From a virus (Duplodnaviria; Caudoviricetes): 64,000 nucleotides of DNA. The stretch is from positions 1-64,000 of the IMG/VR virus record IMGVR_UViG_3300017991_000056, one strand, 5' to 3'. A program made the translations under genes and the position numbers. The notes beneath the pieces are model-generated. The model saw only the letters and a list, made by a program, of their open reading frames with translations. It made no database searches and was not told the DNA's origin. Of the stretch, positions 14,901-52,888 are shown one piece after another (position 1 is the first letter of the stretch; every line of letters begins with the position of its first letter).

Positions 14901-15670
14901 ACCAGGGCAACCAGGGATTCCAGGGTCCTCAAGGCCTCCGTGGCTTCCAGGGTGTTCAGGGCAACCAGGGTGTTCAGGGAAACCAGGGCAACCATGGATT
15001 CCAGGGTCCGCAAGGCCTCCGTGGCTTCCAGGGTGTCCAGGGCAACCAGGGATTTCAGGGTCCGCAAGGCCTCCGTGGCTTCCAGGGTGTCCAGGGCAAC
15101 CAAGGCTGGCAGGGCGTCCAGGGTGTTCAGGGAAACCAGGGCAACCAGGGATTCCAGGGTCCTCAAGGCCTCCGTGGCTTCCAGGGTGTCCAGGGCAACC
15201 AGGGATTCCAGGGCTGGCAGGGAAACCAGGGTCCTCAGGGCAACCAGGGTTGGCAGGGATTTGGAGAAGAGGGAGTCCAGGGTCCGCAAGGGGACAAGCT
15301 GGCCATCGTCGAGACGTCGCAGGGATACCGGGCGCTCTACTGCATGGAGTCCCCGGAGGTGCTGTTCGTCGACGTGGTGAGGGTTGGGCATCGAGGCGAC
15401 CTCTCGACGCACGTGCTCGACGGGATTTTCGTGGAGGCGTGCGAGCCGGATTCCATATTCGTGATGTCGGTGGTGGCGGGGAGGCCGGTCGCTGTCTCGG
15501 CGAACGTGGAGGGCGAGATTCTGACGGTGAGGACGGAGAGGGAGGTTGACACGAAGGTGGTCGTGGCGGTAGTCGGGACGAGGAAGGGGGCCGCTGGTCG
15601 AAGGTTCGAGGGGCATACCGAGGAGGAGGCGAAGCGGAACGCCTCGTTCTGGAACGGCTGGAGGGGCTGA
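11978..15670 (+). CDS. Collagen-like fibre with two LamG/concanavalin-A-like domains and a C-terminal phage-fibre domain
   Basis: Three G-X-Q blocks; two copies of TVLLLH(M/F)(D/N)G..H.VTAVG.A....K.GSG...FDG..(D/E).W...W.H.A..R....DE.RV; C-terminal [19 protein letters not shown]. Confidence 0.85.
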
Positions 15671-15729
15671 GGTGGCCCCGAGCGTGGCGAGCTGCCCCAT
15701 GGGGCGGGCAATATGAGAAGGAGAGCGAG

Positions 15730-16800
15730 ATGATCGTGGTGACAGGATGTCCGAGGTCCGGGACGAGTCTGATGATGTTCACCCTCCGAGGGGCGCTCGG
15801 GGAGGACCGCATCATGGGGGCGGAGTTCCCCCAGGACGAGGGGCTCAAGCGCTTCTTGGAGAAGCATGAGGACGAGACCGACAGCGAGTACGACGCCAGG
15901 ATGTACGTCCGGGAGCAGAGGGTGGACCTGGGGCGGGAGGAGGAGGACAGGAGGCTCATCCGGGAGATGAACCCGAACGGCTTCTGGGAATGCCGGTATT
16001 CCGTCCAGGTGGTCGACTGGCATCTCGGGATCGAGGAGGAGTGTCTGCCTGACAAGGTGTGCAAGATCGTGAGCCAGGGTCTCGCCAGGACCGATCCGCA
16101 GTTCGTTGACAAGGTGATCTTCATGGCGAGGAGCCCGAGGCAGGTGGCCAAGTCGCAGGAGAACCTGAGGCACATGCCGGTCGGGACGATTCAGGAGCAG
16201 AGGGACATGAAGATCCACACTCCGCTGATGTTCTGCAACGTGACGGCGGCCGTGGCCATGTGGCTGAAGGCCTATCCGGACGTCCCGGTCCACATGGTCG
16301 TGTTCGACGATTTCATAGAGAGGCCGGACGAGGTCCTGGAAGGGGTTCGCGAGTTTCTCGGCGAGGGTGACTTCTCGGGCCATCCGGTCAATCCGAAGCT
16401 GAGGCGCAGCTACCCCGAGGACATCGAGCACTACCTCTGGCCCTACGCCGACCACATGTACGAGTTGCTTCTCCGCAAGGACTGGGCGGCCATTGTCGAG
16501 TATTTCCAGGAGAACGCGCGCGACATTCATAAGAAGGAGACGTCGGTCTATTGCGCCAGGAGGGCCACGCCGGCGCCCTATGGGGAGTGCGTGCTCTGCC
16601 GCGGCGACAAGCTGACCAGGGACAACTTCCGCCGGCAGGCGGAGTCGTCCGGGATCGACTGGCGCACGGAGCCCTGCATGTTCGAGTGTTTGAGCCCTTC
16701 CTGCGAGGGGCACGTCTCGATGGCCGAGAGCGTCGAGAGGAACTTCTGGGTCGAGGAGGTTCCGGCCAGGGCCGAGGGCGACAAGGCCCTGTTGGTTTGA
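15730..16800 (+). CDS. Sulfotransferase-family protein (PAPS-binding P-loop) with a Cys-rich C-terminus
   Basis: N-terminal IVVTGCPRSGTSLMM, NPNGFWE, KVIFMARSPR and VFDDFIERP match sulfotransferase motifs. Confidence 0.8.
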   Translation: MIVVTGCPRSGTSLMMFTLRGALGEDRIMGAEFPQDEGLKRFLEKHEDETDSEYDARMYVREQRVDLGREEEDRRLIREMNPNGFWECRYSVQVVDWHLGIEEECLPDKVCKIVSQGLARTDPQFVDKVIFMARSPRQVAKSQENLRHMPVGTIQEQRDMKIHTPLMFCNVTAAVAMWLKAYPDVPVHMVVFDDFIERPDEVLEGVREFLGEGDFSGHPVNPKLRRSYPEDIEHYLWPYADHMYELLLRKDWAAIVEYFQENARDIHKKETSVYCARRATPAPYGECVLCRGDKLTRDNFRRQAESSGIDWRTEPCMFECLSPSCEGHVSMAESVERNFWVEEVPARAEGDKALLV

Positions 16801-16905
16801 GGTTCGGGTGCTGCCCCGCGACCATCCGAGCGGGGAGCAGGAACGCGAACAGGCCGCTGCCGGACGATGGTCTGGCGAGGCCGTGCGGGAACTAGGAGGT
16901 CGATT

Positions 16906-17103
16906 ATGCTGGCGTGGTTCTACGACGTGGCGAAGAGGCAGAAGGTGCAGCGGCCGGTGATCGGCAAGCTGGTTGTGATGGGCAAGGACAAGAATCCCAG
17001 GTTCTCGATGGTCGGCAAGACCGTGGACGGCCGGCGCCTGGTTCTCATGGTGAGCAAGAAGGCCTACAAGCAGTCCGATGTCCCGAGGCTGAAGAGGAGG
17101 TGA
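16906..17103 (+). CDS. Small basic protein (65 aa) with a Cc1/DUF5679-like chromatin-protein pattern
   Basis: AGGAGG RBS; FYDVAKRQKV...RFSMVGKTVDGRRLVLMVSK; followed by a terminator. Confidence 0.55.
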   Translation: MLAWFYDVAKRQKVQRPVIGKLVVMGKDKNPRFSMVGKTVDGRRLVLMVSKKAYKQSDVPRLKRR

Positions 17104-17121
17104 CTTCCGGCTCCCCTTTCG

Positions 17122-17152
17122 GGCCCGCTCGAACGACGAGCGGGCCTTTTTT
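17122..17152 (+). terminator. Intrinsic terminator
   Basis: GGCCCGCTCG-aacga-CGAGCGGGCC followed by TTTTTT. Confidence 0.85.
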
Positions 17153-17181
17153 GTCGAAAGTCCGACCTGGAGGTGTATAAT
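17151..17181 (+). promoter_or_regulatory. Sigma70-like promoter
   Basis: TTGTCG ... perfect TATAAT (17176-17181) immediately after a terminator and before an AGGAGGT RBS; the spacer is long (19 bp). Confidence 0.55.
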
Positions 17182-17200
17182 AGGGCGTGACAGGTAGGAG

Positions 17201-18415
17201 GTGGATATGGCGGACATGAGGAATGTGCTTATTCGCGGCGTGGTCGAGCTGACGCGCAGCAAGGAGTTCTACGGCCATGTCGTCCAGCAGTTTGAGAAGG
17301 TTTACCTGGAGGGGGACTCCGGAATGGCCAGGAAGGTGCAGACGGCCGCTGTCGGCCGCGTTCCGGGCGACCGCTTCGTCAAGCTGTACCTGAACAAGGA
17401 CTACTTCGGGTCGATCTACGACGACCATGGCGCCGACAAGGGGTGGGAGTACGTCCTCGGGGCCATGGAGCACGAGACGTTGCACGTGGTCCTGGACCAT
17501 CTCTTCCTGGAGTTCGAGGACGAGGTGAGGGGAGGGGTCGCCGTCGACTGCGTGGTCAACCAGCTGATTCCGAAAAGCAGGGTCATGGACGCGTGGGCGC
17601 ACCCCATCAAGTACGGCCTGCCGGAAGGCAAGTCGTCGATCTGGTACTACAAGAACCTGGCCGGCAATTCCGAGTTCCAGAAGCAGCTGGCGTCGGGGGC
17701 GTTCGGGCCCGGAGGCGTCATGGAGTGGCTGAGGAGCTCGCATGGCCTGTGGGGCGACGTGGGGAAGGACGAGCTGGCCCACGAGATCATGAAGGACATA
17801 ATCCGGAAGGCGAGGGACATGTGCGACGGGAACTACGGGGACATTCCCGGGTGCGTCGCCGAGAGTATCGAGGAGCTCCTGAGGCGAAAACCTCCGAGGA
17901 TTTGCTGGGGGAGGGTCCTGAGGATGTTCTGCGCTTCCGCGATAGAGAGCGTCCTGGACTACACGATGAAGAGGGTGAGCAGGAGGTTCGGCACCCGGCC
18001 GGGGACGGTCCACGGCGACGTCCTGGACGTGGCGGTCATCGTTGACACGTCGATGTCGATCGACAAGTGGCAGGTGGCGGCCTTCTTCAACGAGATCGAG
18101 TGGATACGCCGGAACGGGGCGGTCATAACCGTCTACGAGGCGGACGCGAGCCTGAAGAGGACCTACCGCTACACCGGCAGGTTCGACGGCGAGGTTCATG
18201 GGCGTCGCGGGACGTGCCTGGACCCGGCCCTGGAGGAGGCGGAGAGGAGGCGCCACGACGCGGCGATCTACTTCACCGACTTCGAGGCGCCGGCGCTGAA
18301 GAGGAGATACGGGCTCCCCGTGCTGTGGGTCCTGACGAGGGACATGGCCAAGGAGGAGCGGCCCTGTGACTGGGGCACGGTTATCGTGCTGGACGAGCCG
18401 AGAAGGGTGGCGTGA
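17201..18415 (+). CDS. DUF2201-type metallopeptidase plus vWA domain protein
   Basis: HETLH (HExxH), AVDCVVNQLI, MIDAS VDTSMS, GRRGT and IYFTD. Confidence 0.85.
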   Translation: MDMADMRNVLIRGVVELTRSKEFYGHVVQQFEKVYLEGDSGMARKVQTAAVGRVPGDRFVKLYLNKDYFGSIYDDHGADKGWEYVLGAMEHETLHVVLDHLFLEFEDEVRGGVAVDCVVNQLIPKSRVMDAWAHPIKYGLPEGKSSIWYYKNLAGNSEFQKQLASGAFGPGGVMEWLRSSHGLWGDVGKDELAHEIMKDIIRKARDMCDGNYGDIPGCVAESIEELLRRKPPRICWGRVLRMFCASAIESVLDYTMKRVSRRFGTRPGTVHGDVLDVAVIVDTSMSIDKWQVAAFFNEIEWIRRNGAVITVYEADASLKRTYRYTGRFDGEVHGRRGTCLDPALEEAERRRHDAAIYFTDFEAPALKRRYGLPVLWVLTRDMAKEERPCDWGTVIVLDEPRRVA

Positions 18416-21966: not shown

Positions 21967-23070
21967 ATGAACCTGACTGAGATCTTGAAGGACGCCTCGC
22001 TCCAGAATCACTCGTGGATGGCCGACGGCCTCACGAGGCCCGGCGAGTTCACGTTCGACCCGGAGGCGCACGACGTTAAGAACCCCAACAACACCAAGCC
22101 CGAGCTGGAGATGGAATGGGGGTATGGCGGCATGGAGCCGATATTCATGGAGGACCCGTCCGCCGGAGAGGTGCGGAGAAACTTGCCGCCCGACGCCGTC
22201 GAGGATGCCGGGGAGGTCATCCGCTTCGCCCGTGACATGATGAATCGCGGACACTCCAGGGAGTTCGTGGCGAAGGCGATCACGTCCTCGTTCCCGATGA
22301 GGACCCTGGCGCGGGCGACTGACGAGCTCAGAAGCCTTTTCTCGCTTGACGGCATCGTGGGAAGGATCGCCGTGGACGCCCGAGGCTATGACAGCTGCAA
22401 GGACGCCCTGAAGGCGGCGGCCAGGTCGCCCTACAAGCGCTTCATCAAGTACGTGATCGGCTGCGACTGCGGCGACCCGCAGATGATCCACGACCATCGC
22501 GACGGAGGCCTGGTGGCCTCGGACGATGTGGGGTTTGACGGTTTTCTGAAGGAGGACGAGAGGCGTCCGTACGAGGCGAGTCTCCGGCCGCATTGCCGGT
22601 CGACCATGCTCCCGATCCTGGCCGGGATGGGGGACCTTGACGAGTCCGAGATGGACAGCACGCTCATTGATCTCATGAACCTGACGAACCTTCCGGAGTC
22701 GATCGTGGAGGAGGATGCCGGGAGGACGCCGCTGGCGAGGGTCCGTGACGCCTTCAGGGCCATCGACAGGATGGCGGCGAAGGCGCGGGCTGCCGCCTAC
22801 GACGAGCAGCCGGACGCGTCGGAGTTCGTGGTCCGGATGGCTGACAACGAGGTCGAGATCGACGCGCCGGCGCGGCCCCCCATCGAGCTGGATGACACGA
22901 GGGCGGCGAAGGTGGAGCTGGACGTGATCGAGTTCGAGGGCATCGACGTCGACATGGCGCAGGGGATGCCCGGCATCTTCGCCGGCGTGGACGAGATCAG
23001 CCTTGATGACGTCGTGGAGCCGGTTTCGGCGCTCGACGTCGACACGAGGTACCAGATGGTGGTGGAATGA
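21967..23070 (+). CDS. Hypothetical acidic protein
   Basis: 367-aa ORF with RBS, translationally coupled to the next gene. Confidence 0.75.
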   Translation: MNLTEILKDASLQNHSWMADGLTRPGEFTFDPEAHDVKNPNNTKPELEMEWGYGGMEPIFMEDPSAGEVRRNLPPDAVEDAGEVIRFARDMMNRGHSREFVAKAITSSFPMRTLARATDELRSLFSLDGIVGRIAVDARGYDSCKDALKAAARSPYKRFIKYVIGCDCGDPQMIHDHRDGGLVASDDVGFDGFLKEDERRPYEASLRPHCRSTMLPILAGMGDLDESEMDSTLIDLMNLTNLPESIVEEDAGRTPLARVRDAFRAIDRMAAKARAAAYDEQPDASEFVVRMADNEVEIDAPARPPIELDDTRAAKVELDVIEFEGIDVDMAQGMPGIFAGVDEISLDDVVEPVSALDVDTRYQMVVE

Positions 23071-23645
23071 GCGACTTCGACGACATGGACGCCCAGGCAG
23101 CCGTCATGACGTCTCCAGCGCGCCAGCCGGGGACGCCGGTGCAGGGTGGCGTGAGCGAGTTCCGGGCCGATCTGGTCAGGAGCTACCACGGCGGCCAGCC
23201 GTCGCTCGTCGGGCGCCTGGAGAAGGATGGCCGGAACGACGTGATGTCCATGGCGGTGGAGCTCCTGAGGGAGATGGTCCAGGAGACGGACCACCTTCTG
23301 GGCAACGAGCTGGTGGCGACGCAGAACGGCGACCTGCGGGACTCGTCGGTCATCTCCTACAAGAGGGCCGAGGTCCTGGAGAAGGCCATCAAGGCGGCGC
23401 ACGCCAGGATGAGGTTCGAGCGGGAGACCAGCGGCTTCGACCTGGACTCCCCGGCGATGATAGTGGTCTTCAGGTTCTTCATGGGCAAGGTCCGGGACGT
23501 CTTCGAGCGCATAGGCGTGGACGCGGAGATGTCCGACATCTTCTTCCGGCAGCTGGGGGAGGAGATGGAGAACTGGAAGAAGGAGCTGCGAGAGCAGGTC
23601 GAGGCGGCCGGCGGCGCTACCGTGGCGCCCGCGAGAGGGGCCTAG
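23067..23645 (+). CDS. Probable terminase small subunit
   Basis: Helical 192-aa ORF immediately upstream of the large terminase (positional inference). Confidence 0.5.
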   Translation: MSDFDDMDAQAAVMTSPARQPGTPVQGGVSEFRADLVRSYHGGQPSLVGRLEKDGRNDVMSMAVELLREMVQETDHLLGNELVATQNGDLRDSSVISYKRAEVLEKAIKAAHARMRFERETSGFDLDSPAMIVVFRFFMGKVRDVFERIGVDAEMSDIFFRQLGEEMENWKKELREQVEAAGGATVAPARGA

Positions 23646-25511
23646 ATGCCGAACAACCTCATAGCCCAGATCGCCAACGAGTTCGTCTCGGGGCCGACCG
23701 AGGATGTCGTCGACATCGTCACCTTCGCGGAGGCGCCCTGGGGGCTGGGGCTCTCCCTGTACCCGGTTCAGAAGTTCATCTTGCGGTGCCTGTACGGGAT
23801 GGCGCTGGATGGAAGCTCCAAGACTATCAAGATCAACGACGTGGTCAACGAGCATCTTCTCTACACCTTCACCGAGAAGCAGTTCCTGAAGTGGCTCTAC
23901 GAGGAGGGGCGCTGCAACACGGACGAGGTCGAGGGCAAGATATTCCAGGAGCTCGTGCTGGTGCTCGGGCGCCGCGGGACAAAATCCAGCCTGGCCTCGG
24001 TCCTCTCCAACTACGAGCTCTACAAGCTGGTTCGGAGGGGTGACCCGTCCGAGTTTTATGGCTTCCCGCGTCAGACGGAGATCGCGATCTTGAACGTCGC
24101 GCCGACCGACGAGCAGTCCGGGATCGTCTTCAACATGATCCAGGCGATGGCGATGCAGTGCCCCTACCTGAGGGACCGCTCGCTCAACCAGACGATGACC
24201 TACTTCAACCTTCAGACCGACGCCGACATGAAGGCGCACGGCAAGCCGAAGGCGAGCCTGGTCTCCATCGCGGGCGGCTGCTCGTCGAATTCCCTCCGCG
24301 GCAGGAACGGGCTGACGGTCATCATGGACGAGATGGCGTTCTTCATCGACAACGGGGGACGCTTCTCCGGCGACGAGGTGTACAAGGCCCTGACGCCGTC
24401 CATCGCCGACTTCAGGCGCGACGGGAAGGTCCTCTGCCTGTCGAGTCCGTATGCCAAGTTCGGAAGGTTCTACGAGCGCTTCGACGAGTCCTTCCAGGAG
24501 CCGGACTACACGCTGATGTTCAAGATGTGGAGCTCGATGGTCAACCCGTCGATCCCGTCTGAGATTCTGAAGGCCGCGAGAAGGCGCGACAGGGTCTCGT
24601 TCATGTGCGAGTACGGCGGGGAGTTCTCCGACCGGGTGACGGCCTGGATCGACGACGAGCACGAGTTCAGGAGGTGCGTGAGCAAGAGGCCGGCCCAGTC
24701 CAGGGGGACCGGGGACGTGGAATACTTCTACGGCGTCGATCTCGGCTTCCGGAACGACGGGACGGCCATCGCGATCGTCCATCGGGAAGGGCAGAGGATC
24801 GTCCTGGACTACGCCGACGTCTGGTTCTCGGGCTCCTCCGACGTGTGGGAGTTCGACAACTCGATCTACTCCGGGTGCAACAAGTACGCCAAGCACGAGC
24901 TTCTCAGGATGGCCGACATCGTCGAGGAGCTCAAGTGCCTGGCCAGGTGGTTCCCGCCGAAGGCCGGGGTCTTCGACCAGTCCAACGGCTACGGCCTCGC
25001 CGAGCTGCTCGGGAAGGCGAAGCTGACGAGCCTGGAGATGAAGCATTTCACGGACGCCCTGAACGACGAGGTGTACCGGCTCGTGAAGCACCTCTACGCC
25101 GGGAGGCTCGTGGAGATGTTCGACCATCCGGTTCTGATCCCCGAGATGCTGGCGCTGGAGGCGGAGAGGAAGAGCGGCCTCAACAACAGGATGGTTGCCG
25201 GGTCCGAGGTGAGGGGCAAGGTGATGGTCCAGGCTCCGAACAGGAGGGGCGCGCACGACGACATTTCGGATGCCTACGTGAGGGCGGTGTGGTCTTGCCA
25301 CAACCACACCCACGGGAAGCCGCAGAACGTGGCGGTCGGGGCTGGCGGGCGTCTTGGGGCGCACGGGGATGTCAGGATTCCCGGGCAGCCGTTCGCCAGG
25401 CAGGAGAGCCAGGCTTCCTTCATGATGCGCAAGGTCAAGATGCACGGCGCCCATCCGAGAGGACTTCACAAGATCAAGAGGCAGCGTGGGCCAGTCCGGA
25501 ACATGAGGTGA
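23646..25511 (+). CDS. terL: Terminase large subunit
   Basis: Walker A LGRRGTKS, Walker B VIMDEMAFF, coupling motif LSSP, nuclease motifs YGVDLG..D and HDDISDA. Confidence 0.92.
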   Translation: MPNNLIAQIANEFVSGPTEDVVDIVTFAEAPWGLGLSLYPVQKFILRCLYGMALDGSSKTIKINDVVNEHLLYTFTEKQFLKWLYEEGRCNTDEVEGKIFQELVLVLGRRGTKSSLASVLSNYELYKLVRRGDPSEFYGFPRQTEIAILNVAPTDEQSGIVFNMIQAMAMQCPYLRDRSLNQTMTYFNLQTDADMKAHGKPKASLVSIAGGCSSNSLRGRNGLTVIMDEMAFFIDNGGRFSGDEVYKALTPSIADFRRDGKVLCLSSPYAKFGRFYERFDESFQEPDYTLMFKMWSSMVNPSIPSEILKAARRRDRVSFMCEYGGEFSDRVTAWIDDEHEFRRCVSKRPAQSRGTGDVEYFYGVDLGFRNDGTAIAIVHREGQRIVLDYADVWFSGSSDVWEFDNSIYSGCNKYAKHELLRMADIVEELKCLARWFPPKAGVFDQSNGYGLAELLGKAKLTSLEMKHFTDALNDEVYRLVKHLYAGRLVEMFDHPVLIPEMLALEAERKSGLNNRMVAGSEVRGKVMVQAPNRRGAHDDISDAYVRAVWSCHNHTHGKPQNVAVGAGGRLGAHGDVRIPGQPFARQESQASFMMRKVKMHGAHPRGLHKIKRQRGPVRNMR

Positions 25512-25512
25512 C

Positions 25513-26610
25513 GTGTTGCCGAAGCCGATGACCAAGGAAGAGCAGACGCGTCGCCGGAAGAAGACCGACTCGGTCAGGAGGCTGGCCCAGAAGATATTGG
25601 GTCTCCGCCAGAAGGTGACGAGGGACCTGAAGTCTGACGACGAGAAGACTCGCCTGACGGCTCTCGCCGTGGCGCTCATGGACAAGACGGCCGAGAGGGT
25701 CGGGAACGAGGCGTCGGCCAGGGACGGCCACGTCGGCGTCACCGGGTTCAAGAAGAGCCATGTCGAGGTCGACGGCAACACGGTCAGCCTGAAGTACACG
25801 GGAAAGTCGGGCGTGAAGCAGGAGAAGCAGTTCTCGGACGAGGCCGTGGCGAAGGTCGTCAAGGAGTGCCTGAGGAACTGCAAGGGCGACTCGCCGATCC
25901 TCGTGACGTCGGACGGCTTCAAGGTGAGGGCCGACAAGGTCAACCGGTACCTCAAGGAGTTCGAGGTCACGGCGAAGGACATCCGGGGCCACGCGGCCAA
26001 CGACCTGGTCGTGAGGCTCCTGAGGGGCTCCATGGTCCCGTCGGACCCGGACGAGCGGAAGAAGAAGTTCCGCGAGGTGATGAAGACGGTGGCCGAGAAG
26101 GTCGGGCATCAGCAGGCGACGCTGAAGAGGCACTACTTGCTGCCGGGCTTCGAGGAGCAGTATGTCGGGAAGGGCACCGTGCCCTCCGTGAAGGAGGCGT
26201 CGGTGTCCCAGGTGGTGCTCGAGAGGCTTTTGTCCGTCAGGGTGGCGCGGGGTCTCCTGCGGGGGCGGATGGAGGAGATGGTTGCCGACCTGGTCGGCGA
26301 AATATCCGGCAAGGTCGACAGGGCGTGCAGGGAGGTGGTCGGGCGCGAGTCCGAGATGCCGGACGAGATCGACGTCGAGATCGACGGGGTGCCGACAGGC
26401 AAGGTAGCCCAGTTCGTGCCGCCGGGCTCGGGACCCGCGGTGCTGCGGGTGAGCTCGAAGCTGTTCGACGAGCCCGGCAAGGTCAGGATAGCCGTGACGC
26501 ACGAGCTCTGTCACGCGGCGCTCGGGCATGAGAGGAACGCGGGCTCGCATGACGAGGAGTTCCAGAAGCTGGCGCGGGCAATGGGCGTGCCGGAGAGGAT
26601 GAGGGACTGA
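25513..26610 (+). CDS. DNA topoisomerase IB catalytic domain fused to a SprT-like HExxH metalloprotease
   Basis: RVGNE, Y.GKSG, VNRYL, TAKDIR, VGH..AT.KRHY (R-K-R-H-Y pentad); C-terminal THELCH..SHDEEFQK. Confidence 0.85.
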   Translation: MLPKPMTKEEQTRRRKKTDSVRRLAQKILGLRQKVTRDLKSDDEKTRLTALAVALMDKTAERVGNEASARDGHVGVTGFKKSHVEVDGNTVSLKYTGKSGVKQEKQFSDEAVAKVVKECLRNCKGDSPILVTSDGFKVRADKVNRYLKEFEVTAKDIRGHAANDLVVRLLRGSMVPSDPDERKKKFREVMKTVAEKVGHQQATLKRHYLLPGFEEQYVGKGTVPSVKEASVSQVVLERLLSVRVARGLLRGRMEEMVADLVGEISGKVDRACREVVGRESEMPDEIDVEIDGVPTGKVAQFVPPGSGPAVLRVSSKLFDEPGKVRIAVTHELCHAALGHERNAGSHDEEFQKLARAMGVPERMRD

Positions 26611-26611
26611 C

Positions 26612-27226
26612 GTGGGCGACCAGGTATACAAGCTGAAGGATGGCGAGGAGGTTCCTGTCGAGCCGGCTGACAGCCTTGTCGCCACTGGCTGGCTTCAGGG
26701 CACGTGGGTCCGGTACGCGTCCGGCGCCCCGACCTTCTCGCCAGGCGTCATCGGCGTGGTGGAGAGGTCCGACGGCGAGGGTGTCATGTGCGGGTTCCTG
26801 ATCCGGGGCCCGCAGCACGTGACGCCGATGCAGCGGCTCAGCGACATGTGGGACGCGGACATCCTCCAGCGCCCGGGCGGCGACAGCGTCTCGGACTGGA
26901 CGGCCCACGATCCGGGAGGGCCGCTCCACTTCGACAACGAGAAGCAGCTCCAGAGGCTGGGCAGCCGGGTGGTGACGATGTACGTGCCTCCGACCGGCTA
27001 TTTCAGATGGTACACGTTCGAGACCGAGGACCTGGCGGAGAGGACGACCCCGGGCACCGGGGCGCCGCTGGTCTATGTGCCGAACGACAAGCTGTACGTG
27101 AGCGACCAGGGCCTTCTGACGAACGAGCAGGAGGGCGTGGCGCATGCGTGGACGGGATACGTGGTGGCCAGGGCGACCTCCGACCAGGAGGGCAGCTTCC
27201 TGGTTGTCACGGCGGCTGTCGGATGA
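26612..27226 (+). CDS. Capsid decoration-protein paralogue
   Basis: FET..LVYVPNDKLYVSDQGLLTNE aligns with YET..LTYSVGDLLYCSAQGFLTNE of 51482..51976. Confidence 0.6.
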   Translation: MGDQVYKLKDGEEVPVEPADSLVATGWLQGTWVRYASGAPTFSPGVIGVVERSDGEGVMCGFLIRGPQHVTPMQRLSDMWDADILQRPGGDSVSDWTAHDPGGPLHFDNEKQLQRLGSRVVTMYVPPTGYFRWYTFETEDLAERTTPGTGAPLVYVPNDKLYVSDQGLLTNEQEGVAHAWTGYVVARATSDQEGSFLVVTAAVG

Positions 27227-27256
27227 TGGTCGTTGCAACCCAGAAGGGTTGAGATT

Positions 27257-27787
27257 ATGGATGCGAGTTTGCTTGAGAGCGCGAGGGCGGCCGAGGAGTC
27301 GCTGAGGAGGCGGGAGATCGAGGGCGTCGTCGAGGGCGTGCCGGAGGACCACCCGCTGAAGGATGCGATGCGGAAGAACCGGCTCCGGGCGCAGGACCTT
27401 GAGGGACTGCCGGAGGGCCATCCGCTCCTGGCTGCCTTGGCGGCGGCCAAGGAGCGTCACGATCTCGGCGAGGCCATGGGGCGGGAGCAGGTTCGGACGT
27501 CCGAGGTCCATAAGGCGAGGAAGATAGAGCGTCGCGAGGCCAGGGAGCGTGAGAGGGCGACTGAGCGAGAGGGCAGAAGGATGGCGGCCGACGCGGCCGA
27601 GGTGGTGAATCGGAGCCTGGACAGGGCGACGGAGGCAGTCAAGGTCCTGGTGGGGGCCTTGGAGGAAGGAGCGGGACCGTTGTCGGCCATGCCGGAGTCT
27701 AGGGTCAAGATCAGGCGACTGGAGAGGTTGGCGAACGCCGCATTGTCGGGGTTCGCCTCTTCCCGCGTCAGGGTTAGGAGGACTTGA
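27257..27787 (+). CDS. Hypothetical coiled-coil protein
   Basis: ORF between the decoration paralogue and the portal; duplicated (V/L)PE(D/G)HPL motif. Confidence 0.6.
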   Translation: MDASLLESARAAEESLRRREIEGVVEGVPEDHPLKDAMRKNRLRAQDLEGLPEGHPLLAALAAAKERHDLGEAMGREQVRTSEVHKARKIERREARERERATEREGRRMAADAAEVVNRSLDRATEAVKVLVGALEEGAGPLSAMPESRVKIRRLERLANAALSGFASSRVRVRRT

Positions 27788-27789
27788 CC

Positions 27790-29754
27790 ATGGCCCGTGG
27801 GCAGATAGTGAGAACTCCGGTGAGGGACGCGGATATCAGAAGCCTGTCCGGGAACGGGTTCAGGGGCGGCGTGAGGCGCCCGGCCGTGACCACCGGGAAG
27901 GCTGATCCGATGAAGGCGAGGATGGCGAAGGTGGCCACGGGCACGGCCATGGGCGGCAGCATGTTCAGGAACGCCGGGATGCTGGTGGACTTGACGCCGA
28001 ACAGGCCGTACACGTCCGGGTACGCCCTGGAGGCCTACCGGACGTCCTACGCCAACGGCCTCTCGGACATGTCGGGGACCTTCGACGTCCCGACCTACTT
28101 CGTTCAGATGAACGAGCAGAACGGCGGGATGATCTACTGGCCCGTGACCCTTAGGGAGAAGTACCAGTGGTATAGATACTGGACTAGGAGCGATGCCTAC
28201 GTGGGCCGCGCGCTGGAGATGCTCGCGGACCTTCCGATGAGCAAGCTCACGCTGAACATCCCCAAGCACGTCCCTGAGGACCGGCGCGAGGAGATGAAGG
28301 ACTTCTTCACCTACCAGCTGGAGGTGGTCAGGGGCTTCGAGCTCTGCCAGAGCATCCTGTGGGAGCTCAACATGATCGGGAACTGCCATCTCTTCCACGA
28401 ATGGAACGATGTCAGGAAGATGTGGAAGAAGGTGGTCATGCTGCCGCCCGAGGAGGTCTACGTCTTCCAGTACCCGTTTTCCGACACGAAGCGGGTCGAG
28501 TACAGGCCGGAGAGGCTCATCTCGCTGATCGAGGGGGAGCGCGGCCATGGCGGCGTCTCGGCCTCCTCGCTTCCGGGCTCGTCGTCGAAGTGCGACAACG
28601 CGGACCTGGACCAGAAGATCGTCGAGAACATCCCCGAGGAGATCGTCGAGATGGTCAAGAACGAGGGGTGCATCGTCATGGACAGCGATCCCATGACCGG
28701 CTCCTTCGTCCACACGATCTCCCGGCGCCGCTCGCCGTACCTCGATCTCGGGTCGTCCGTCCTGGAGCGCGTGCTGGTGCCGATGCTCCAGAAGGAGCAC
28801 TTCCGGTACACCCAGCTCAGCCTGGCGAGCCGGAACATGACGCCGAAGAACCTCATCACCGCCCCGGGCCTGACGCCGGAGCAGGTCGACGAGCTCAGGA
28901 CGCAGGTCGACCTGTCCTTCATGGACCCGGAGTACAGCATCATAACCAACTACGACGTGACGTGGGAGCAGATCGGCGCCCAGGACCGGCTGCTGGACCT
29001 GGACAGGGAGTACGAGAGGATCGAGAACCAGGTCTTCGCGGCGCTCGGGGTGACGAGGGAGCTCCTGACGGGGGAGACCACGTTCTCGGGGAGCAAGATC
29101 ACGGTCGAGATCCTGAACAGCATGTTCCTGCTGACGCGGGAGATACTGACCGACTACATCGAGCGGCAGCTGTTCGTGCCGATCTGCGAGAGGCGGGGAT
29201 GGTTCACGGAGGACAAGAACGGGGTGAAGAAGTATTGGCACCCGCGCGTGGGCTTCAACCGTCTCACGATCCGGGACAATGCCGAGGTCTTCGACAGCCT
29301 GTTCCAGCTCTACCAGAAGGGCAGCCTCGACGTCGATGTCATCCTGGAGCTGTTCAACATCGACAGCGAGGAGCAGGCGGTGAAGCTCAAGGGGCAGTTG
29401 TTCACGGTCAAGGACGCCAACTTCAACAGGCTCGTCGAGGAGGTGTGCAGCGACGTCGGGCGCAATCTCGTGGAGAACAGCAACGTGGCCGAGAAGATCG
29501 CCACGTACCTGGGGCTGGAGTTCGACGGGCCGGCGGAGGACGAGGGTGGTTTCGGCGGCGGTTTCGGGGGAGACGACCAGCAGTCGTTCGGCGAGTCCGG
29601 CGGTGCCGGAGGGGCCGAGGCTGACGCGCAGCCGGCGGAGGAGCCGGGCGGGGAGGGCGGCAGGTCGACCGACGACATGGCCGTGGCCATAGCGGACGCG
29701 TTGCCGGAAGGCGTGGACGAGGAAGATGTCAGGAGCGTCGTGGAGGCGCTTTGA
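27790..29754 (+). CDS. Portal protein
   Basis: ~650-aa ORF downstream of terL; ..YVGRALEMLADLPMSK..ELNMIGN..AALGVTRELLTGE..Y IERQLF.PIC pattern of large-phage portals; acidic Gly-rich tail. Confidence 0.8.
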   Translation: MARGQIVRTPVRDADIRSLSGNGFRGGVRRPAVTTGKADPMKARMAKVATGTAMGGSMFRNAGMLVDLTPNRPYTSGYALEAYRTSYANGLSDMSGTFDVPTYFVQMNEQNGGMIYWPVTLREKYQWYRYWTRSDAYVGRALEMLADLPMSKLTLNIPKHVPEDRREEMKDFFTYQLEVVRGFELCQSILWELNMIGNCHLFHEWNDVRKMWKKVVMLPPEEVYVFQYPFSDTKRVEYRPERLISLIEGERGHGGVSASSLPGSSSKCDNADLDQKIVENIPEEIVEMVKNEGCIVMDSDPMTGSFVHTISRRRSPYLDLGSSVLERVLVPMLQKEHFRYTQLSLASRNMTPKNLITAPGLTPEQVDELRTQVDLSFMDPEYSIITNYDVTWEQIGAQDRLLDLDREYERIENQVFAALGVTRELLTGETTFSGSKITVEILNSMFLLTREILTDYIERQLFVPICERRGWFTEDKNGVKKYWHPRVGFNRLTIRDNAEVFDSLFQLYQKGSLDVDVILELFNIDSEEQAVKLKGQLFTVKDANFNRLVEEVCSDVGRNLVENSNVAEKIATYLGLEFDGPAEDEGGFGGGFGGDDQQSFGESGGAGGAEADAQPAEEPGGEGGRSTDDMAVAIADALPEGVDEEDVRSVVEAL

Positions 29755-29766
29755 CGGGAGACGGAA

Positions 29767-32700
29767 ATGGATTTCGAGGTGGTCAGGAACAGCGTGGCGA
29801 GAGGTTTCGGGGTGGTCCTTCGCGTGGCGAAGGATTTCAAGACCCAGAACGCCTTGGACGAGTACCTGAAGAGCCATCCTGGCGCCAAGAGGACCGACCA
29901 CGGGGTGGTCTCCCCCGCCGAGCGCGACTTCCAGAAGAAGGAGCAGCGCGAGCGCGAGCAGGACGACCGCGCCTCCGCCGGCGCCGAGACGAGGAAGGAT
30001 GACGAGAAGAAGCAGGAAGGTGGCGCCCCGGCAGGGGAGCGGGGCGACGCCGAGCCGCGGCAGCCGCAGCGGGGCGACCCGTCGCAGCCGGAGGACGTCG
30101 GGGAAGGGATGATAGTCCTTCTGGACCAGGAGCCGGGCTCGAAGGAGGCTCGCGTGGCGGAAGCCTTCTTGGCGTCCGCGAGGATGGCGGCGCAGTGGGA
30201 GCCCGTGCGTGGCAACCCGAACCGTCAGCGCAGGCGCAAGCCTGGTGGCGGATACGCCTATCGTGACAAGCCGGCCGACGACCAGGGGAAGGCCAGGGAC
30301 GAGACGGGTCCGGCCAAGGGCCCGGCCAAGGACGGGGCTCCGGCGCCCGCCAAGGGCGCGCCGATGGAGGTGAGGCTGAAGCAGGTCCTGGGCGAGGACC
30401 CGGGCGACGGGTGGGGGCAGCATCCCATCGCCGAGCATCAGTTGACGCACGGGGTCCAGGTCAGGTTTCCGGACGGGAGCTCCAAGAAGTACGGGGAGCT
30501 GTCCGACGACGAGAAGGCCAGGGTCCAGAAGGCCCTGGCAGACGGCAATGCGGCGACCAGGGGGATGAACGACTACTCCAAGGTGGACGTCGAGACCCTG
30601 AAGGCCAACATGGCCCGGAACCTGGGCTTCTACGACTCGGGCTCGGAGGAGAAGGCCAACTCGGACGCGTCGCCTGTGACGAAGGAGAACGCGAAGCAGG
30701 TGGCGGACTCCATCAGGGAGAATGCCAAGAGCGTGCTGGAGAAGTATTCGAAGGCCATGTCGAGCGTGTCGAGGCCGATGGCCGAGGCCTATGTCGACGA
30801 CATGGCCTCCGCCGTGGAGGAGGCGGCCAGGGACGGCTCGTTGGGCGACGTGTCCCAGGCCGACGTCGACGCGTTGGTTCGCGAGGACGTGAGGAGGATG
30901 CTGCACCAGGAGGTCGAGACCAGGCGCCGGTCGCTTGGGGACCACGGCATCCGGCACGCGACGACCAACGCGGCGAACACGGAGGCGATGCTGGGGGAGC
31001 TCCAGAAGGCCGGGCTGCCGGTCACGGGCAAGGACAAGCTGATGGCCATGACGATCCAGGCCAACCACGACGTCGGGTACACGGTCGGCGACCCGGCCAC
31101 AGGCTTCAAGGGGAGCCACAAGGACAACTCCGAGGAGCTCTTCAACCAGGAGAGGGGCAGGTTCGACAAGGTCTTCGGGGCCGATTCCATGGACGACATG
31201 GCGAAGATCATCAAGACGCACGACGCGAACGACGTGGACTGGGACAAGGACCCGGTCGGGTCGGCGGTCAGGCTCTCCGACTCGACGGCTCTCTTCGGGC
31301 AGGAGAAGGTCCAGGAGCTGTTCGTCCGGCAGCCGAGGACCATGGAGCTGGCCTGCAAGCTGAGGCTGGCGGCGGAGGCGGACCCGGGGAACGACCAGCT
31401 GATCGAGTCGATCAAGAAGCAGATGCACCAGGCCGTGGAGGACGGCGACTTCGACGAGGTCGACAAGAAGCTCCTGAACGACCAGGTGAGCGAGATGGGG
31501 GAGAAGGGGTTCAGCGCCTCGAAGGACATCCTGTCGAGGTTCAGCGGCCGCATCGACGACTTCAGCTTCGACAAGGATCGGAAGGTCATGACGGTGGGGA
31601 TGAGATACTCGCCGGAGGGCCAGACCGTCGACATGCTGTTCGGGGACAAGCTGGCGGCAAAGAAGTTCAACAGCTTCATCGAGGACATGGGCGGCAAGCC
31701 GGTGGAGGGGCAGGCCCGTGGCGAGATGGAGTTCGAGAGCAACGGCAAGCCGGCCTTCAGGCTGGAGATGCGCGGCTTCGACGACGATCCGGCGGAGACC
31801 GCCCATACCGAGGCCATGAAGGGGTTCGTGGAAAAGACGGCCAGGGCCGGGTTCAACTCGGCGAAGAGGAGCATCATCCCGCCTCCGGGCATGGTCGAGG
31901 ACGACGTGGACAAGGCCTTCGAGTACGTGAAGAAGGAGAGGGGCAAGTTCAACGACGCGGAATGGGCCTCCATGGAGAAGCTGTTCAAGGACGGGCGAGG
32001 AAATCCCGCGTCCATCGTCGAGGCGCTCGGTAAGTGGCCCCTGCTGGAGTCGGAGAAGGCGTATCTCGGGACGTCCGGGGCCGCGCCGTCCGGAGGTGCT
32101 GGCGACGTGTCTGGAAAGGCCGACGACCTGATGGGCAGGATCAAGGAGTTCGAGGGAGAGGACAAGGACCGGGTCGTCAAGCTGGTCGAGCGGCTCGAAG
32201 CTGTGAAGGACAAAATGATGGGCAAGGCGGCGTCGATTCCGAGACATGCGGCCCGGATGCTCCTGGCGTCCGTGGCGACCAAGGGCGTCTTCAGGCGGCT
32301 GGCGCAGCTCTCCGACGAGGAGAAGGCGGAGGTCGTCAAGAAGGTGATGGAGAAGATTCAGGGTGGCGGGCAGGAGGCAGAGGGAGATGCGCCGGCGGAT
32401 GCCGGAGACGCCAAGGGGCTCGACGCCATGGAGAAGGAGGTCGAGGCCCTGGAGCAGGAGGCCGCTGCGGACGTGGCGCCTCCGGAGGGCGGCGACGAGG
32501 CACCGGAGGCAGACGCGCCAGGGCCAGAGGAAGATGTCCCGGAGGCAGATGCTCCGGCCATGTCCGACGACGACGGGGAGGGTGGCCTCCTGAAGGTCGT
32601 CGAGGACCTGGCTGCCGAGGTTGAGCAGATCAGGTCCGACGGCAGGGTCGATCCCTCCGAGGTGCTCGGCCTGTTCGACAACATGATGCAGATGGTGACG

Positions 32701-33006
32701 TTCCTGGTTGACACGAAGGCGCCGGCCAAGAGGCGGCGCAGGCGCAAGTCGTCGCTCGGCGTCGTCGACTTCGAGATGATGGTGGGTCGGGTGGCCGCGT
32801 CGTTCGCGGCGACCAGGGGCTTGCAGGTCCGCCGGAAGGACAAGGACACGATGGCGGACACGGGCGGCGTCTCCAAGGGCCGCGAGCGGGAGCCGGAGTT
32901 GAAGCCCCCGCGCGAGGACGGCAAGAAGACGCACCGGACCAAGGACAAGCCTGCCGGCGAGCGGGACCGGGATACTGACAGCGATCCCGATATTCGGAAG
33001 GATTGA
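29767..33006 (+). CDS. Large multi-module protein with a central HD-superfamily domain; probable head-associated protein
   Basis: DHGIRH, ANHDVGY, SH, KTHD and RLSD; low-complexity linkers. Confidence 0.7.
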   Translation: MDFEVVRNSVARGFGVVLRVAKDFKTQNALDEYLKSHPGAKRTDHGVVSPAERDFQKKEQREREQDDRASAGAETRKDDEKKQEGGAPAGERGDAEPRQPQRGDPSQPEDVGEGMIVLLDQEPGSKEARVAEAFLASARMAAQWEPVRGNPNRQRRRKPGGGYAYRDKPADDQGKARDETGPAKGPAKDGAPAPAKGAPMEVRLKQVLGEDPGDGWGQHPIAEHQLTHGVQVRFPDGSSKKYGELSDDEKARVQKALADGNAATRGMNDYSKVDVETLKANMARNLGFYDSGSEEKANSDASPVTKENAKQVADSIRENAKSVLEKYSKAMSSVSRPMAEAYVDDMASAVEEAARDGSLGDVSQADVDALVREDVRRMLHQEVETRRRSLGDHGIRHATTNAANTEAMLGELQKAGLPVTGKDKLMAMTIQANHDVGYTVGDPATGFKGSHKDNSEELFNQERGRFDKVFGADSMDDMAKIIKTHDANDVDWDKDPVGSAVRLSDSTALFGQEKVQELFVRQPRTMELACKLRLAAEADPGNDQLIESIKKQMHQAVEDGDFDEVDKKLLNDQVSEMGEKGFSASKDILSRFSGRIDDFSFDKDRKVMTVGMRYSPEGQTVDMLFGDKLAAKKFNSFIEDMGGKPVEGQARGEMEFESNGKPAFRLEMRGFDDDPAETAHTEAMKGFVEKTARAGFNSAKRSIIPPPGMVEDDVDKAFEYVKKERGKFNDAEWASMEKLFKDGRGNPASIVEALGKWPLLESEKAYLGTSGAAPSGGAGDVSGKADDLMGRIKEFEGEDKDRVVKLVERLEAVKDKMMGKAASIPRHAARMLLASVATKGVFRRLAQLSDEEKAEVVKKVMEKIQGGGQEAEGDAPADAGDAKGLDAMEKEVEALEQEAAADVAPPEGGDEAPEADAPGPEEDVPEADAPAMSDDDGEGGLLKVVEDLAAEVEQIRSDGRVDPSEVLGLFDNMMQMVTFLVDTKAPAKRRRRRKSSLGVVDFEMMVGRVAASFAATRGLQVRRKDKDTMADTGGVSKGREREPELKPPREDGKKTHRTKDKPAGERDRDTDSDPDIRKD

Positions 33007-33281
33007 AGATGGACAGGGAGAGGATCGCAGCCATGGCTATGAATGTCGCGAGAAGCGTGTCCGCGGTGGATGGCGAAGACGAGAAGGCGCTCGCGAACGT
33101 GGACGGGGCTGTCGACGCCATGATCGCGGGGATACAGACCATCGAGGAGAACCTTCCCGGCGTCCGGGCGGACACCGTCCCGGAGAAGGCGGCCAAGGAG
33201 GCCATCCAGGAGCTTTTGGACGAGGCCATAAAGCCGTACCTCGCCGACCTGGTGAAGGCGCTGGAGTCGTTCGGCGGTTGA
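33003..33281 (+). CDS. Small helical hypothetical protein
   Basis: Coupled ORF; N-terminal RIAAMAMNVARS motif. Confidence 0.7.
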   Translation: MKMDRERIAAMAMNVARSVSAVDGEDEKALANVDGAVDAMIAGIQTIEENLPGVRADTVPEKAAKEAIQELLDEAIKPYLADLVKALESFGG

Positions 33282-33282
33282 C

Positions 33283-33300
33283 GATTCCTTTTATATTTCG
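33283..33300 (+). promoter_or_regulatory. Phage late-promoter-like motif, copy 2
   Basis: GATTCCTTTTATATTTCG, followed by AAGGAGG and ATG 33328. Confidence 0.65.
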
Positions 33301-46969: not shown

Positions 46970-47203
46970 GTGGACATGGACGGCAAGATGATCGCGAGCG
47001 AGCTTCTCCTGGCGGCGAGGGACCTGGTCGGCGGCAAGGACGACAAGTGCGGCGAGAAGGGCTGCATCCGGCAGGTCGACGGGAAGTGGCGCGTGATGTC
47101 GGGCAAGACCGGCAAGCTGTGGCCCGCAAAGTACGACTCCGAGGGGTCCGCCAAGGACGCCCTGGACGCGTGGCACGCCAGCAGGTTCAAGGGAGCCAAG
47201 TGA
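46970..47203 (+). CDS. Small head-region protein with N-terminal IASELLLAARDL motif
   Basis: RBS GAGGAGGT; IRQVDGKWRVMSGKTGK..YDSE..AK.AL module; TGATG coupling to the protease. Confidence 0.7.
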   Translation: MDMDGKMIASELLLAARDLVGGKDDKCGEKGCIRQVDGKWRVMSGKTGKLWPAKYDSEGSAKDALDAWHASRFKGAK

Positions 47204-52027: not shown

Positions 52028-52888
52028 ATGGCAGTTGACAACCAGACCAAGCAGGAAATCATTTCCCAGCACATCCGCACGGCAGCCGGCCGCGCTCGCC
52101 TCGCTGCGAGCATGATTCAGCCGCTCAGGCGGCGCAGGGACTACACGAGCGTAGGGAGAAAGGCGTTTTACGTCGAGGCGTTGCCCGATGGCGCCCTGCC
52201 TATCTACGACAAGGACCCGAACGTGGTGGCCTACGTCATCGGCGAAGAGGGCGAGAACATCGTCTCGGTCGCGAAGCCGAAGCGCGTGATGTTCCCGCTG
52301 TTCGAGATCGCCTCGAACCCCGAGATCCAGCTGACCGAGATCAAGCAGCGGCGCTTCGACCTGATCGAGCGCTCCGTCGACCTCGGCAAGAGCGAGATCC
52401 AGGCCGAGGAGGACCGCAAGGTCTTCGCCGTCATGGACGCGCTCGCGGCCGACCCGACGAACCCGAACCCGCCGATCCCCGTCACGGGCAACCTGACGGC
52501 GAACGCGCTGGCCGACGCCTTCGCGAACATCGAACGCACCGACATCCGTGTCGCGACCGTGTTCCTGAACGCCAAGGACTACGCCGACCTGCGCAAGTGG
52601 GACCGGGACACGCTGGACATCGAGACCCAGGCGATCCTGCTGAAGACCGGGCTCATGGCCACCCTCTGGGGCGCCAAGCTCATGGTCAGCCGCATCGTCC
52701 CCGAGGGAACGGTGTACTGCTGCGGCGAGGCCGAGTTCTTCGGCCGCATGCCCGTCCGGACGGAGCTCACGGTCCTGTCCGCCGACGACCCCAAGAACAG
52801 GCTGATCGGCTTCAGCATGTTCGAGCAGCTCGGAATTGGGGCGTATAACCCCTTTTCCCTGCAGGTCCTTCAAATTACTCGTGTTTGA
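52028..52888 (+). CDS. Major capsid protein (HK97 fold, Bxz1-like family)
   Basis: GRARLAASMIQPLRRRRDY..LPDGALPIYD..KRV..PLFEIASNPEI...IQAEEDRK; strong RBS; terminator downstream. Confidence 0.9.
   Translation: MAVDNQTKQEIISQHIRTAAGRARLAASMIQPLRRRRDYTSVGRKAFYVEALPDGALPIYDKDPNVVAYVIGEEGENIVSVAKPKRVMFPLFEIASNPEIQLTEIKQRRFDLIERSVDLGKSEIQAEEDRKVFAVMDALAADPTNPNPPIPVTGNLTANALADAFANIERTDIRVATVFLNAKDYADLRKWDRDTLDIETQAILLKTGLMATLWGAKLMVSRIVPEGTVYCCGEAEFFGRMPVRTELTVLSADDPKNRLIGFSMFEQLGIGAYNPFSLQVLQITRV

Follow-up and report, generated by a model that had tools for sequence, protein, structure and literature searches.

Why would a huge phage join a protease to a topoisomerase and encode the product between its terminase and its portal? 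The locus that raises this question lies at positions 25513-26610 of a 64,000-nucleotide stretch of viral DNA (hereafter, the window), which is the first 64 kb of the IMG/VR record IMGVR_UViG_3300017991_000056 (Duplodnaviria; Caudoviricetes; 133,403 bases, estimated to be 39% complete). A single open reading frame (ORF) there encodes a type IB topoisomerase (TopIB) followed by a small SprT-like zincin, and we assign it to a huge phage because an identical protein sits on a 298,395-base contig. Overall, we propose that the fusion is a minimal polyvalent-type, that is, multi-enzyme, protein of the head gene block in which the zincin acts in processing, and we give this reading a probability of about 0.5. 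The polyvalent type is marked by at least two unrelated catalytic modules in one phage or plasmid polypeptide and by a location among late or virion genes; the fusion combines TopIB with a zincin, and its gene lies between those of the large terminase (TerL) and the portal. The fusion is a new architectural variant assembled from known parts.

Two enzyme modules in one reading frame

The preliminary description of this DNA had proposed one open frame carrying TopIB and then a SprT-like domain. The ORF was indeed uninterrupted, gave both Pfam matches and had a third-position GC of 0.93, like its neighbors. Its parts were as follows.

25513-26610, + strand: TopIB-SprT fusion ORF, 365 residues plus stop (TopIB module, linker, mini-SprT zincin)
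25543-26184, + strand: TopIB catalytic domain, residues 11-224 (Pfam, PDB alignment, Foldseek)
25696-25698, 25804-25806, 25984-25986, 26107-26109 and 26134-26136, + strand: catalytic codons R62, K98, R158, H199 and Y208
26185-26298, + strand: linker, residues 225-262, about 40 residues, predicted to be part of one long helix
26299-26607, + strand: mini-SprT zincin, residues 263-365 (Pfam PF10263, structure model, structural matches)
26500-26514, + strand: HELCH at residue 330 (H330, E331, H334)
26548-26550, + strand: third ligand H346, then F350
26605-26607, + strand: terminal residue D365

The identity of the first module was established by sequence and by structure. It matched Pfam Topoisom_I (PF01028) over residues 11-207 with an expect value (E) of 4.4e-28 and 98.6 bits against a cut-off of 23.7 (100.7 bits in a six-frame search), and its best solved relative was TopIB of Deinococcus radiodurans (PDB 2f4q; E 9.7e-15, aligned to residues 89-301 of that protein). 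The AlphaFold2 (AF2) model of the fusion had a predicted local distance difference test (pLDDT) score of 87, and Foldseek matched this model to 3m4a (E 1.7e-12; root-mean-square deviation (rmsd) 2.2 over 215 columns), 2f4q (1.1e-11) and variola 2h7f (2.1e-10). TopIB matches spanned E 1.7e-12 to 1e-5, and tyrosine recombinases appeared only from E 1.8e-3. The complete motif set listed in the preliminary description (RVGNE at residue 62, GKSG at 97, KDIR at 155, GH at 198-199 and HY at 207-208) was found where it had been placed.

The five catalytic residues aligned to those of vaccinia/variola and Deinococcus TopIB. No change to this pentad was seen in the 27 aligned fusions or in the 196 TopIB domains, including those within giant proteins (the tyrosine was present in 195, with one gap). 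The N-terminal DNA-clamp domain was missing: the query aligned from its residue 11-15 onward, 2f4q only from its residue 89 and 2h7f only from its residue 100, and the same reduced form was common to the modules of all 196 relatives. As judged from its sequence, the module is a catalytic-domain-only enzyme with intact catalytic residues, and DNA relaxation activity by way of a 3'-phosphotyrosyl intermediate is predicted. TopIB enzymes need neither ATP nor Mg.

The second module, which we call mini-SprT, was established as SprT-like by sequence and by fold, as had been proposed. Its match to Pfam SprT-like (PF10263), over residues 310-358, was marginal (26.3 bits, or 27.6 in the six-frame search, where the cut-off is 25.6) and covered positions 45-96 of a 108-position profile, and among ten relatives of the domain, two scored above the cut-off, seven scored below it and one had no match. 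The preliminary description had given the domain about 110 residues with the pattern THELCH..H...F; the domain and HELCH at residue 330 were borne out, and the span proved slightly shorter, at about 103 residues. A separate model of the last 141 residues, built with relatives, reached a pLDDT of 91.8 and had three strands and three helices, among the latter a long helix and the HExxH helix. The highest VIA Z-scores were those of the minigluzincins projannalysin (9.6), proabylysin (9.5) and selecase (8.7), with which human SPRTN (6mdx) was tied at 8.6 (rmsd 3.6, 99 residues aligned), and Wss1 scored 6.3/6.0. A family profile run against the PDB matched projannalysin only (E 1.4e-4). The fold matches agreed with the proposed identities: the AF2 model matched TopIB structures, and the top BFVD matches of the zincin half were mostly phage proteins named SprT-like. 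The SPRTN/Wss1 and minigluzincin matches are mutually consistent because Balakirev et al. 2015 (PMC4559962), in sections of that paper, place Wss1 and Spartan with the minigluzincins.

Conservation within mini-SprT was strict. H330, E331 and H334 were present in 98 of 98 instances, and H346 and F350 were present in 97. The domain formed the C-terminal end of its protein in all 98, with a tail of the form ...Y/F-Q/R-D whose last residue was Asp in 96 and Asn in 2. That the free end is so well conserved hints at a role for the tail. In a 2013 paper on minigluzincins, the C-terminal tails of proabylysin and projannalysin are said to block the active site. The zinc-binding and DNA-binding sub-domains of the SPRTN type, through which proteolysis becomes DNA-dependent, were missing, and the protein ended 19 residues past the third His; any DNA binding of mini-SprT could come only from the fused TopIB.

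Between the two modules, the pLDDT fell below 50 at residues 228-243 (26194-26241), which was the sole low-confidence stretch of the AF2 model. A complex prediction of residues 1-225 with residues 262-365 scored 0.00, but its controls did not fold, and the score weighs neither for nor against docking of the two halves. The linker varied in length and sequence among homologues (27-55 residues, or 160-205 with an inserted module). RVARG (residues 243-247; 26239-26253) lies at the end of the disordered stretch, and the preliminary description had read it as a tag linking two cargo domains. The two-domain part of that reading, as a head-block protein that joins two modules, agrees best with the comparative data; the tag part fared poorly. 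The pattern RVA[RSAKG].[FLIMV], which was picked after inspection of the data, had 7 occurrences among 51 window proteins where 2.5 were expected, with 9 of 500 shuffles reaching 7, and plain RVA was not enriched (20 observed, 18.5 expected). RVARG was not conserved, as the junction read RVAS, RVAG, RVVA or nothing similar in homologues. Given the weak enrichment, the lack of conservation at the junction and the lack of a linker match in the window, we rejected RVARG as a demonstrated tag and retain it as a weak lead only.

The unrelated ORFs 46970-47203 and 62793-63473 begin with a similar helix, ..IASELLLAARDL.. and ..RLASELVTLAREIAA.. respectively, of the form (I/L)ASEL..AR.

Recurrence of the fusion and the possible pairing of TopIB with SprT-like proteases

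We followed both modules across relatives. Homologues of 200-639 residues numbered 417 at E 0.001 or better, and the best 120 of these were analyzed: 65 carried mini-SprT (56 with a 27-55-residue linker and 9 with a 160-205-residue insert), 38 were TopIB alone and 17 had other extensions. In IMG/VR, 110 relatives from a pattern scan were confirmed, of which the best 80 were kept, most of them on contigs of 100-620 kb; a hidden Markov model of mini-SprT found it in four of these loci (L002, L003, L005 and L007). Recurrence of the architecture, which the preliminary description had singled out for a survey, is thus established. Among 50,697 phage records, tblastn with the fusion as query returned one match, in an uncultured 485-kb phage, and to the TopIB part only.

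In a tree of 196 TopIB domains (FastTree, local supports, midpoint root; without P0001, which is the window's own protein, and without P0079, P0086, P0091 and P0098, which cover fewer than 180 profile positions), the fusions made up 65 rows of a 99-row subclade and persisted to about 45% identity. The fusion label required 10 changes on this tree, of which starred branches force at least 7, and it therefore fits one gain with losses as well as several gains. Unrelated C-domains on TopIB homologues, the outcome named in the preliminary description as speaking against a functional pair, were found at larger distances and not among close relatives.

Beyond the fusions, both modules had other partners. 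TopIB lay within an ORF of at least 700 residues in 47 of the best 80 loci (700-3098 residues; at least 1000 in 43), and the 11 giant TopIB ORFs scanned with Pfam contained NUDIX, InPase, 2H phosphoesterase, PolyA_pol/nucleotidyltransferase, GNAT and PRTase domains. HExxH in a typical zincin context was present in 21 of 67 distinct TopIB ORFs, with 27 sites against about 2.9 expected, and in the close relative L004, TopIB has a 423-residue tail that holds a different type of zincin. With the last 141 residues as query, 33 proteins were found among 1.84 billion representatives, in which mini-SprT was free-standing (129-144 residues), behind an N-domain of about 150 residues, or behind TopIB.

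The N-domain of about 150 residues (P0122, P0124, P0127, P0129, P0130, P0132, P0135 and P0147) carries the motifs W..GVE, DGKDWR and VNCHSLLHD..WTL and had no match in Pfam, PHROG or the protein atlas. Giant TopIB ORFs of up to 3098 residues with several HExxH modules lie right after the portal at L036:5084-13498, L076:4247-13540, L046:9026-16063 and 44 further loci; in L036, an intein with a LAGLIDADG domain splits the PolyA_pol head domain.

As plain frequencies within the TopIB-bearing huge-phage records only (n=43, L059 not included), PF10263 was matched in 14, with 7 above the cut-off, mostly tens of kb from TopIB; among the 7 of these records that were at least 90% complete, 2 had a match. 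A weak SprT-like match lay next door to TopIB in L066. There is no obligate pairing of TopIB with mini-SprT, as seen in the 4 of 80 loci, the 14 of 43 records and the 2 of 7 near-complete records. The scarcity of SprT-like matches in these records, and their distance from TopIB, is the reason that we favor the minimal polyvalent-type reading. A head-block protein made of two modules is also favored because the TopIB of relatives joins many other enzymes, and mini-SprT joins other partners or stands alone.

We therefore suggest the following putative mechanism. The task of TopIB would be to relax the extremely long DNA of the phage while it is packaged, after the enzyme has been delivered with it, or both, like the encapsidated TopIB of poxviruses. 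The zincin would be a portable C-terminal module that most likely cuts the protein in cis or nearby; a target might be the disordered linker, whose cleavage would release or switch off the topoisomerase. Its latency may be maintained by the invariant C-terminal tail. We do not read the zincin as a dedicated repair enzyme for topoisomerase adducts. Both enzyme activities, the substrate of the protease and the role of the tail are what we infer from these comparisons.

Several observations weigh against this reading. Because the fusion fills 65 rows of the 99-row subclade and persists to about 45% identity, it does not look like a loose combination, and selection for keeping TopIB and mini-SprT together is suggested. 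Stand-alone forms among the metagenome proteins, TopIB-alone rows included, may be cut at contig ends. A weak SprT-like match was present inside the giant TopIB protein of L058, and in Pseudomonas phage PaBG, a cultured but distant jumbo phage, 4 kb separate the TopIB gene (gp84) from a different SprT-like gene (gp89), both of them located between the genes for the portal and the capsid. The subclade-wide fusion, the PaBG proximity and the L058 match favor a specific link between TopIB and a protease. Moreover, neither gp84 nor gp89 is listed in the 14-band Coomassie virion proteome of PaBG (Table 1 of PMC7412058, an excerpt of that study), which detects abundant proteins only. Loading of the fusion protein into the virion is likewise something that we infer. 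The (I/L)ASEL..AR helix at the N-termini of ORFs 46970 and 62793 is missing from the fusion, and the linker, compared by short-word BLAST with every ORF of the window, gave nothing below E 0.1. Finally, phmmer with the TerL and portal of the window, applied 10 kb either way of TopIB, found neither in 36 of the best 80 loci.

The PaBG cluster (L089, KF147891 56209-61791) is co-directional and comprises TopIB gp84, a thymidylate kinase, an MmcB-like nuclease and SprT-like gp89, with the nuclease between gp84 and gp89; it lies between portal gene gp106 on one side and major capsid gene gp80 on the other. Gp84 has 562 residues, a long N-terminal extension and 24% identity to the TopIB of the window, and gp89 has 448 residues and a weak SprT profile match (E 0.0027). 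SPRTN shows an HExxH…HGxxF pattern, which is also present in gp89. The neighbor of gp84, gp83, is a virion protein with function unassigned. According to sections of Iyer et al. 2021 (PMC7824862), TopIB and SprT-like families both occur in the jumbo-phage group of PaBG, as separate genes.

These points bear most directly on the strongest alternative, a self-rescuing topoisomerase, which we consider unlikely. The SprT module would degrade its own TopIB when the latter is covalently trapped, sparing replication and the portal, and the protein would be a viral analogue of SPRTN/Wss1 with TopIB as the DNA tether. The SprT-like sequence and fold of the C-domain (with the Z-scores of SPRTN and Wss1 given above), the retention of the fusion across its subclade, the PaBG gene pair with its MmcB-like nuclease, the match within the L058 polyprotein and the coupling of the gene to TerL described below all agree with this idea, and Wss1 is needed after camptothecin-induced Top1 covalent complexes (Top1cc), as stated in sections of PMC4559962. 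Against it, 76 of the best 80 TopIB loci had no mini-SprT in cis or within 10 kb; likewise, 29 of the 43 TopIB-bearing records, and 5 of the 7 that were at least 90% complete, had no PF10263 match. Mini-SprT also occurs alone or joined to a non-TopIB domain, it has neither the zinc- nor the DNA-binding sub-domain of SPRTN in a chain that stops so soon past the third His, and among polyvalent proteins generally no module is commoner than the zincin (sections of Iyer et al. 2017, PMC5512222).

Position in the terminase-portal block

The gene context was established from the following features of the window, whose genes are almost all on the + strand with a third-position GC of 0.8-0.94.

23067-23645, + strand: 192-residue ORF directly before TerL, conserved across the whole clade; candidate small terminase by position only
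23646-25511, + strand: TerL (phrog_9, E 9.9e-18), directly upstream of the fusion; homologues lie directly before TopIB in 12 loci
25506-25511, + strand: Shine-Dalgarno-like AGGTGA overlapping the TerL stop codon (sequence)
26612-27226, + strand: 204-residue conserved ORF between the fusion and the portal, function unassigned
27233-27787, + strand: 184-residue ORF directly before the portal, function unassigned
27784-29754, + strand: portal (phrog_16240, E 1.2e-16)
33263-33288, + strand: first strong terminator-like hairpin downstream of the fusion (consensus scan)
52028-52888: major capsid protein

The placement between terminase and portal that had been noted for the fusion holds in that TerL adjoins it upstream and the portal follows downstream, with the qualification that two small ORFs intervene before the portal. 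The start codon is GTG 25513 or TTG 25516, which is 1-4 nt past the TerL stop (TGA 25509-25511), and the N-termini of homologues (M-P/T-K-P-M) fit a start at TTG 25516. Because the Shine-Dalgarno-like AGGTGA overlaps the TerL stop, translational coupling of TerL and the fusion is suggested, and with a start so close to that stop, the gene would be expressed with the packaging and head genes. A consensus scan, which was the only method applied, found no promoter- or terminator-like site between 21967 and 33263 and hence none separating TerL, the fusion and the portal.

Many related huge phages keep TopIB in the same block. TerL or the portal lay within 10 kb of TopIB in 44 of the best 80 loci. 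The order was TerL, TopIB, portal in 12 of the 80, with a gap between TerL and TopIB of at most 70 nt in 11 of the 12, and TopIB lay downstream of the portal in 32, within 100 nt in 12 of these. On the evidence of gene order, TopIB is a constant resident of the terminase-portal block. The nearest cultured relative by TerL is Tunturiibacter phage Tunturi_5 (28.5% identity), in which other genes are annotated between TerL and the portal.

A second alternative, which we rate as quite unlikely, is that the protein is a packaging helper and is not injected. TopIB would act as a swivel beside the terminase on a genome of about 300 kb, and the protease would limit its lifetime or remove it before head completion. 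The start 1-4 nt past the TerL stop, the 12 loci with TopIB directly after TerL and the cofactor independence of TopIB suit this role, as do the missing helix motif of the two other window N-termini and, within the Table 1 excerpt of PMC7412058, the absence of TopIB from the 14 particle bands of PaBG. Yet in the 32 loci where TopIB follows the portal, it is part of giant proteins whose other modules (NUDIX, 2H, InPase and GNAT) lack an evident packaging role, and contact of the protein with TerL lacks support.

A bolder version, which we regard as similarly improbable, is a self-clearing packaging swivel. Cofactor-free TopIB at the motor would untwist the genome of about 300 kb, and a SprT module held latent by its Asp tail would digest trapped enzyme so that an adduct cannot jam the portal; the protein would then be a one-chain counterpart, in a bacterial virus, of SPRTN/Wss1.

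A host-directed effector pair, in which the zincin would cut a host protein such as a defence or DNA-bound factor and TopIB would target it to DNA or itself act on host DNA, is very unlikely: sections of Iyer et al. 2021 (PMC7824862) propose host proteins as targets of jumbo-phage SprT-like and ArdC-like peptidases, sections of Iyer et al. 2017 (PMC5512222) give effector roles as one option for polyvalent-protein peptidases, and the 2H, NUDIX and GNAT modules of the relatives are typical counter-defence enzymes, but the strict C-terminal position (98 of 98) and terminal Asp (96 of 98) point to a self-directed or latent enzyme, the fully conserved pentad implies that TopIB is not a mere DNA-binding handle, and no known substrate speaks for such a role.

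Several other features surround the block. The 367-residue ORF 21967-23070, upstream of the 192-residue ORF, is conserved in nearer relatives, and neither it nor ORF 23067-23645 had a Pfam or PHROG match. Right after the portal lies an acidic, low-complexity ORF of 1079 residues (29767-33006), of which relatives conserve the N-terminal part only; in relatives, its position is taken by TopIB polyproteins. The packaging block is preceded by a sulfotransferase-family protein (15730-16800) and a DUF2201 (VWA-like) protein (17201-18415). In several relatives, the TerL or portal homologues are 1.5-2.2 times as long as those of the window, with portals of about 1000-1450 residues compared with 656 (L004:6999-9908 and 13940-18289; TerL of L042/L044; portals of L008, L053, L076 and L081), and this added length suggests inteins or inserted domains in their packaging genes. 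A search of metagenome-assembled genome contigs gave two loci only and no host clue.

Implications

If our interpretation is true, the terminase-portal block of uncultured huge phages across a broad clade holds TopIB as a fixed and catalytically intact component, often as part of a giant multi-enzyme protein. Like poxviruses, these phages may then rely on an enzyme without cofactors to deal with DNA twist during packaging or entry. Literature searches, which did not extend to supplements, found no paper describing TopIB as a fixed terminase-portal resident in huge phages. They also found no phage TopIB-SprT fusion and no TopIB in polyvalent proteins, where the architecture supplements of PMC5512222 and PMC7824862, outside these searches, may hold cases. 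Mini-SprT is a compact and sharply defined subfamily of about 100 residues, which makes it a tractable model for latency and switching of minimal SprT/minigluzincin proteases, and the 365-residue fusion offers a ready test of cooperation between a SprT protease and a type IB topoisomerase outside eukaryotes.

Comparison with known systems

Polyvalent proteins are the closest parallel. Sections of Iyer et al. 2017 (PMC5512222) describe them as injected proteins of phages and conjugative elements that contain 2H, InPase, NUDIX and GNAT modules, with zincin peptidases in about 36% of them, for which the authors proposed autoprocessing, host targets or the freeing of modules once injected. The fusion shares with them unrelated enzyme modules in one chain among late/virion genes, a zincin as the commonest such module, and 2H, InPase, NUDIX and GNAT in its relatives. 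In contrast, it has two modules and 365 residues only, its delivery into the host is presumed, and its zincin uses His (H346) as the third ligand, whereas the polyvalent peptidase clades in those sections use Glu. In the main text of PMC5512222, "SprT" appears nowhere and "topoisomerase" in the reference list only.

SPRTN and Wss1 share with mini-SprT the HExxH…H-G/D-x-x-F signature, the zincin fold and a conceptual link to topoisomerase I adducts (sections of PMC4559962). The domain in the window differs from them in having about 100 residues and no zinc-binding, basic DNA-binding, ubiquitin/SUMO or Cdc48/p97 motifs, in being fused to the topoisomerase itself, and in being always protein-terminal with a terminal Asp; its protease activity is predicted. 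The minigluzincins proabylysin (4jiu), projannalysin (4jix) and selecase (4qhf) are the best structural matches and have a similar size (about 105-110 residues), and the first two are called zymogens in their PDB titles. Unlike mini-SprT, they are free-standing archaeal proteins, neither fused nor viral.

Among the topoisomerases, that of D. radiodurans (2f4q/3m4a) is the closest solved relative, although its N-terminal domain has no counterpart in the fusion. PaBG resembles the window in gene arrangement, with TopIB and a SprT-like protein encoded on one strand between the portal and major capsid genes, but as separate genes for longer proteins. Poxvirus virions contain their TopIB, which aids early transcription. 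Unlike the fusion, the vaccinia/variola enzyme retains an N-terminal DNA-binding domain of about 80 residues and has no protease, but it is likewise small, encoded by a virus and equipped with the R-K-R-H-Y pentad.

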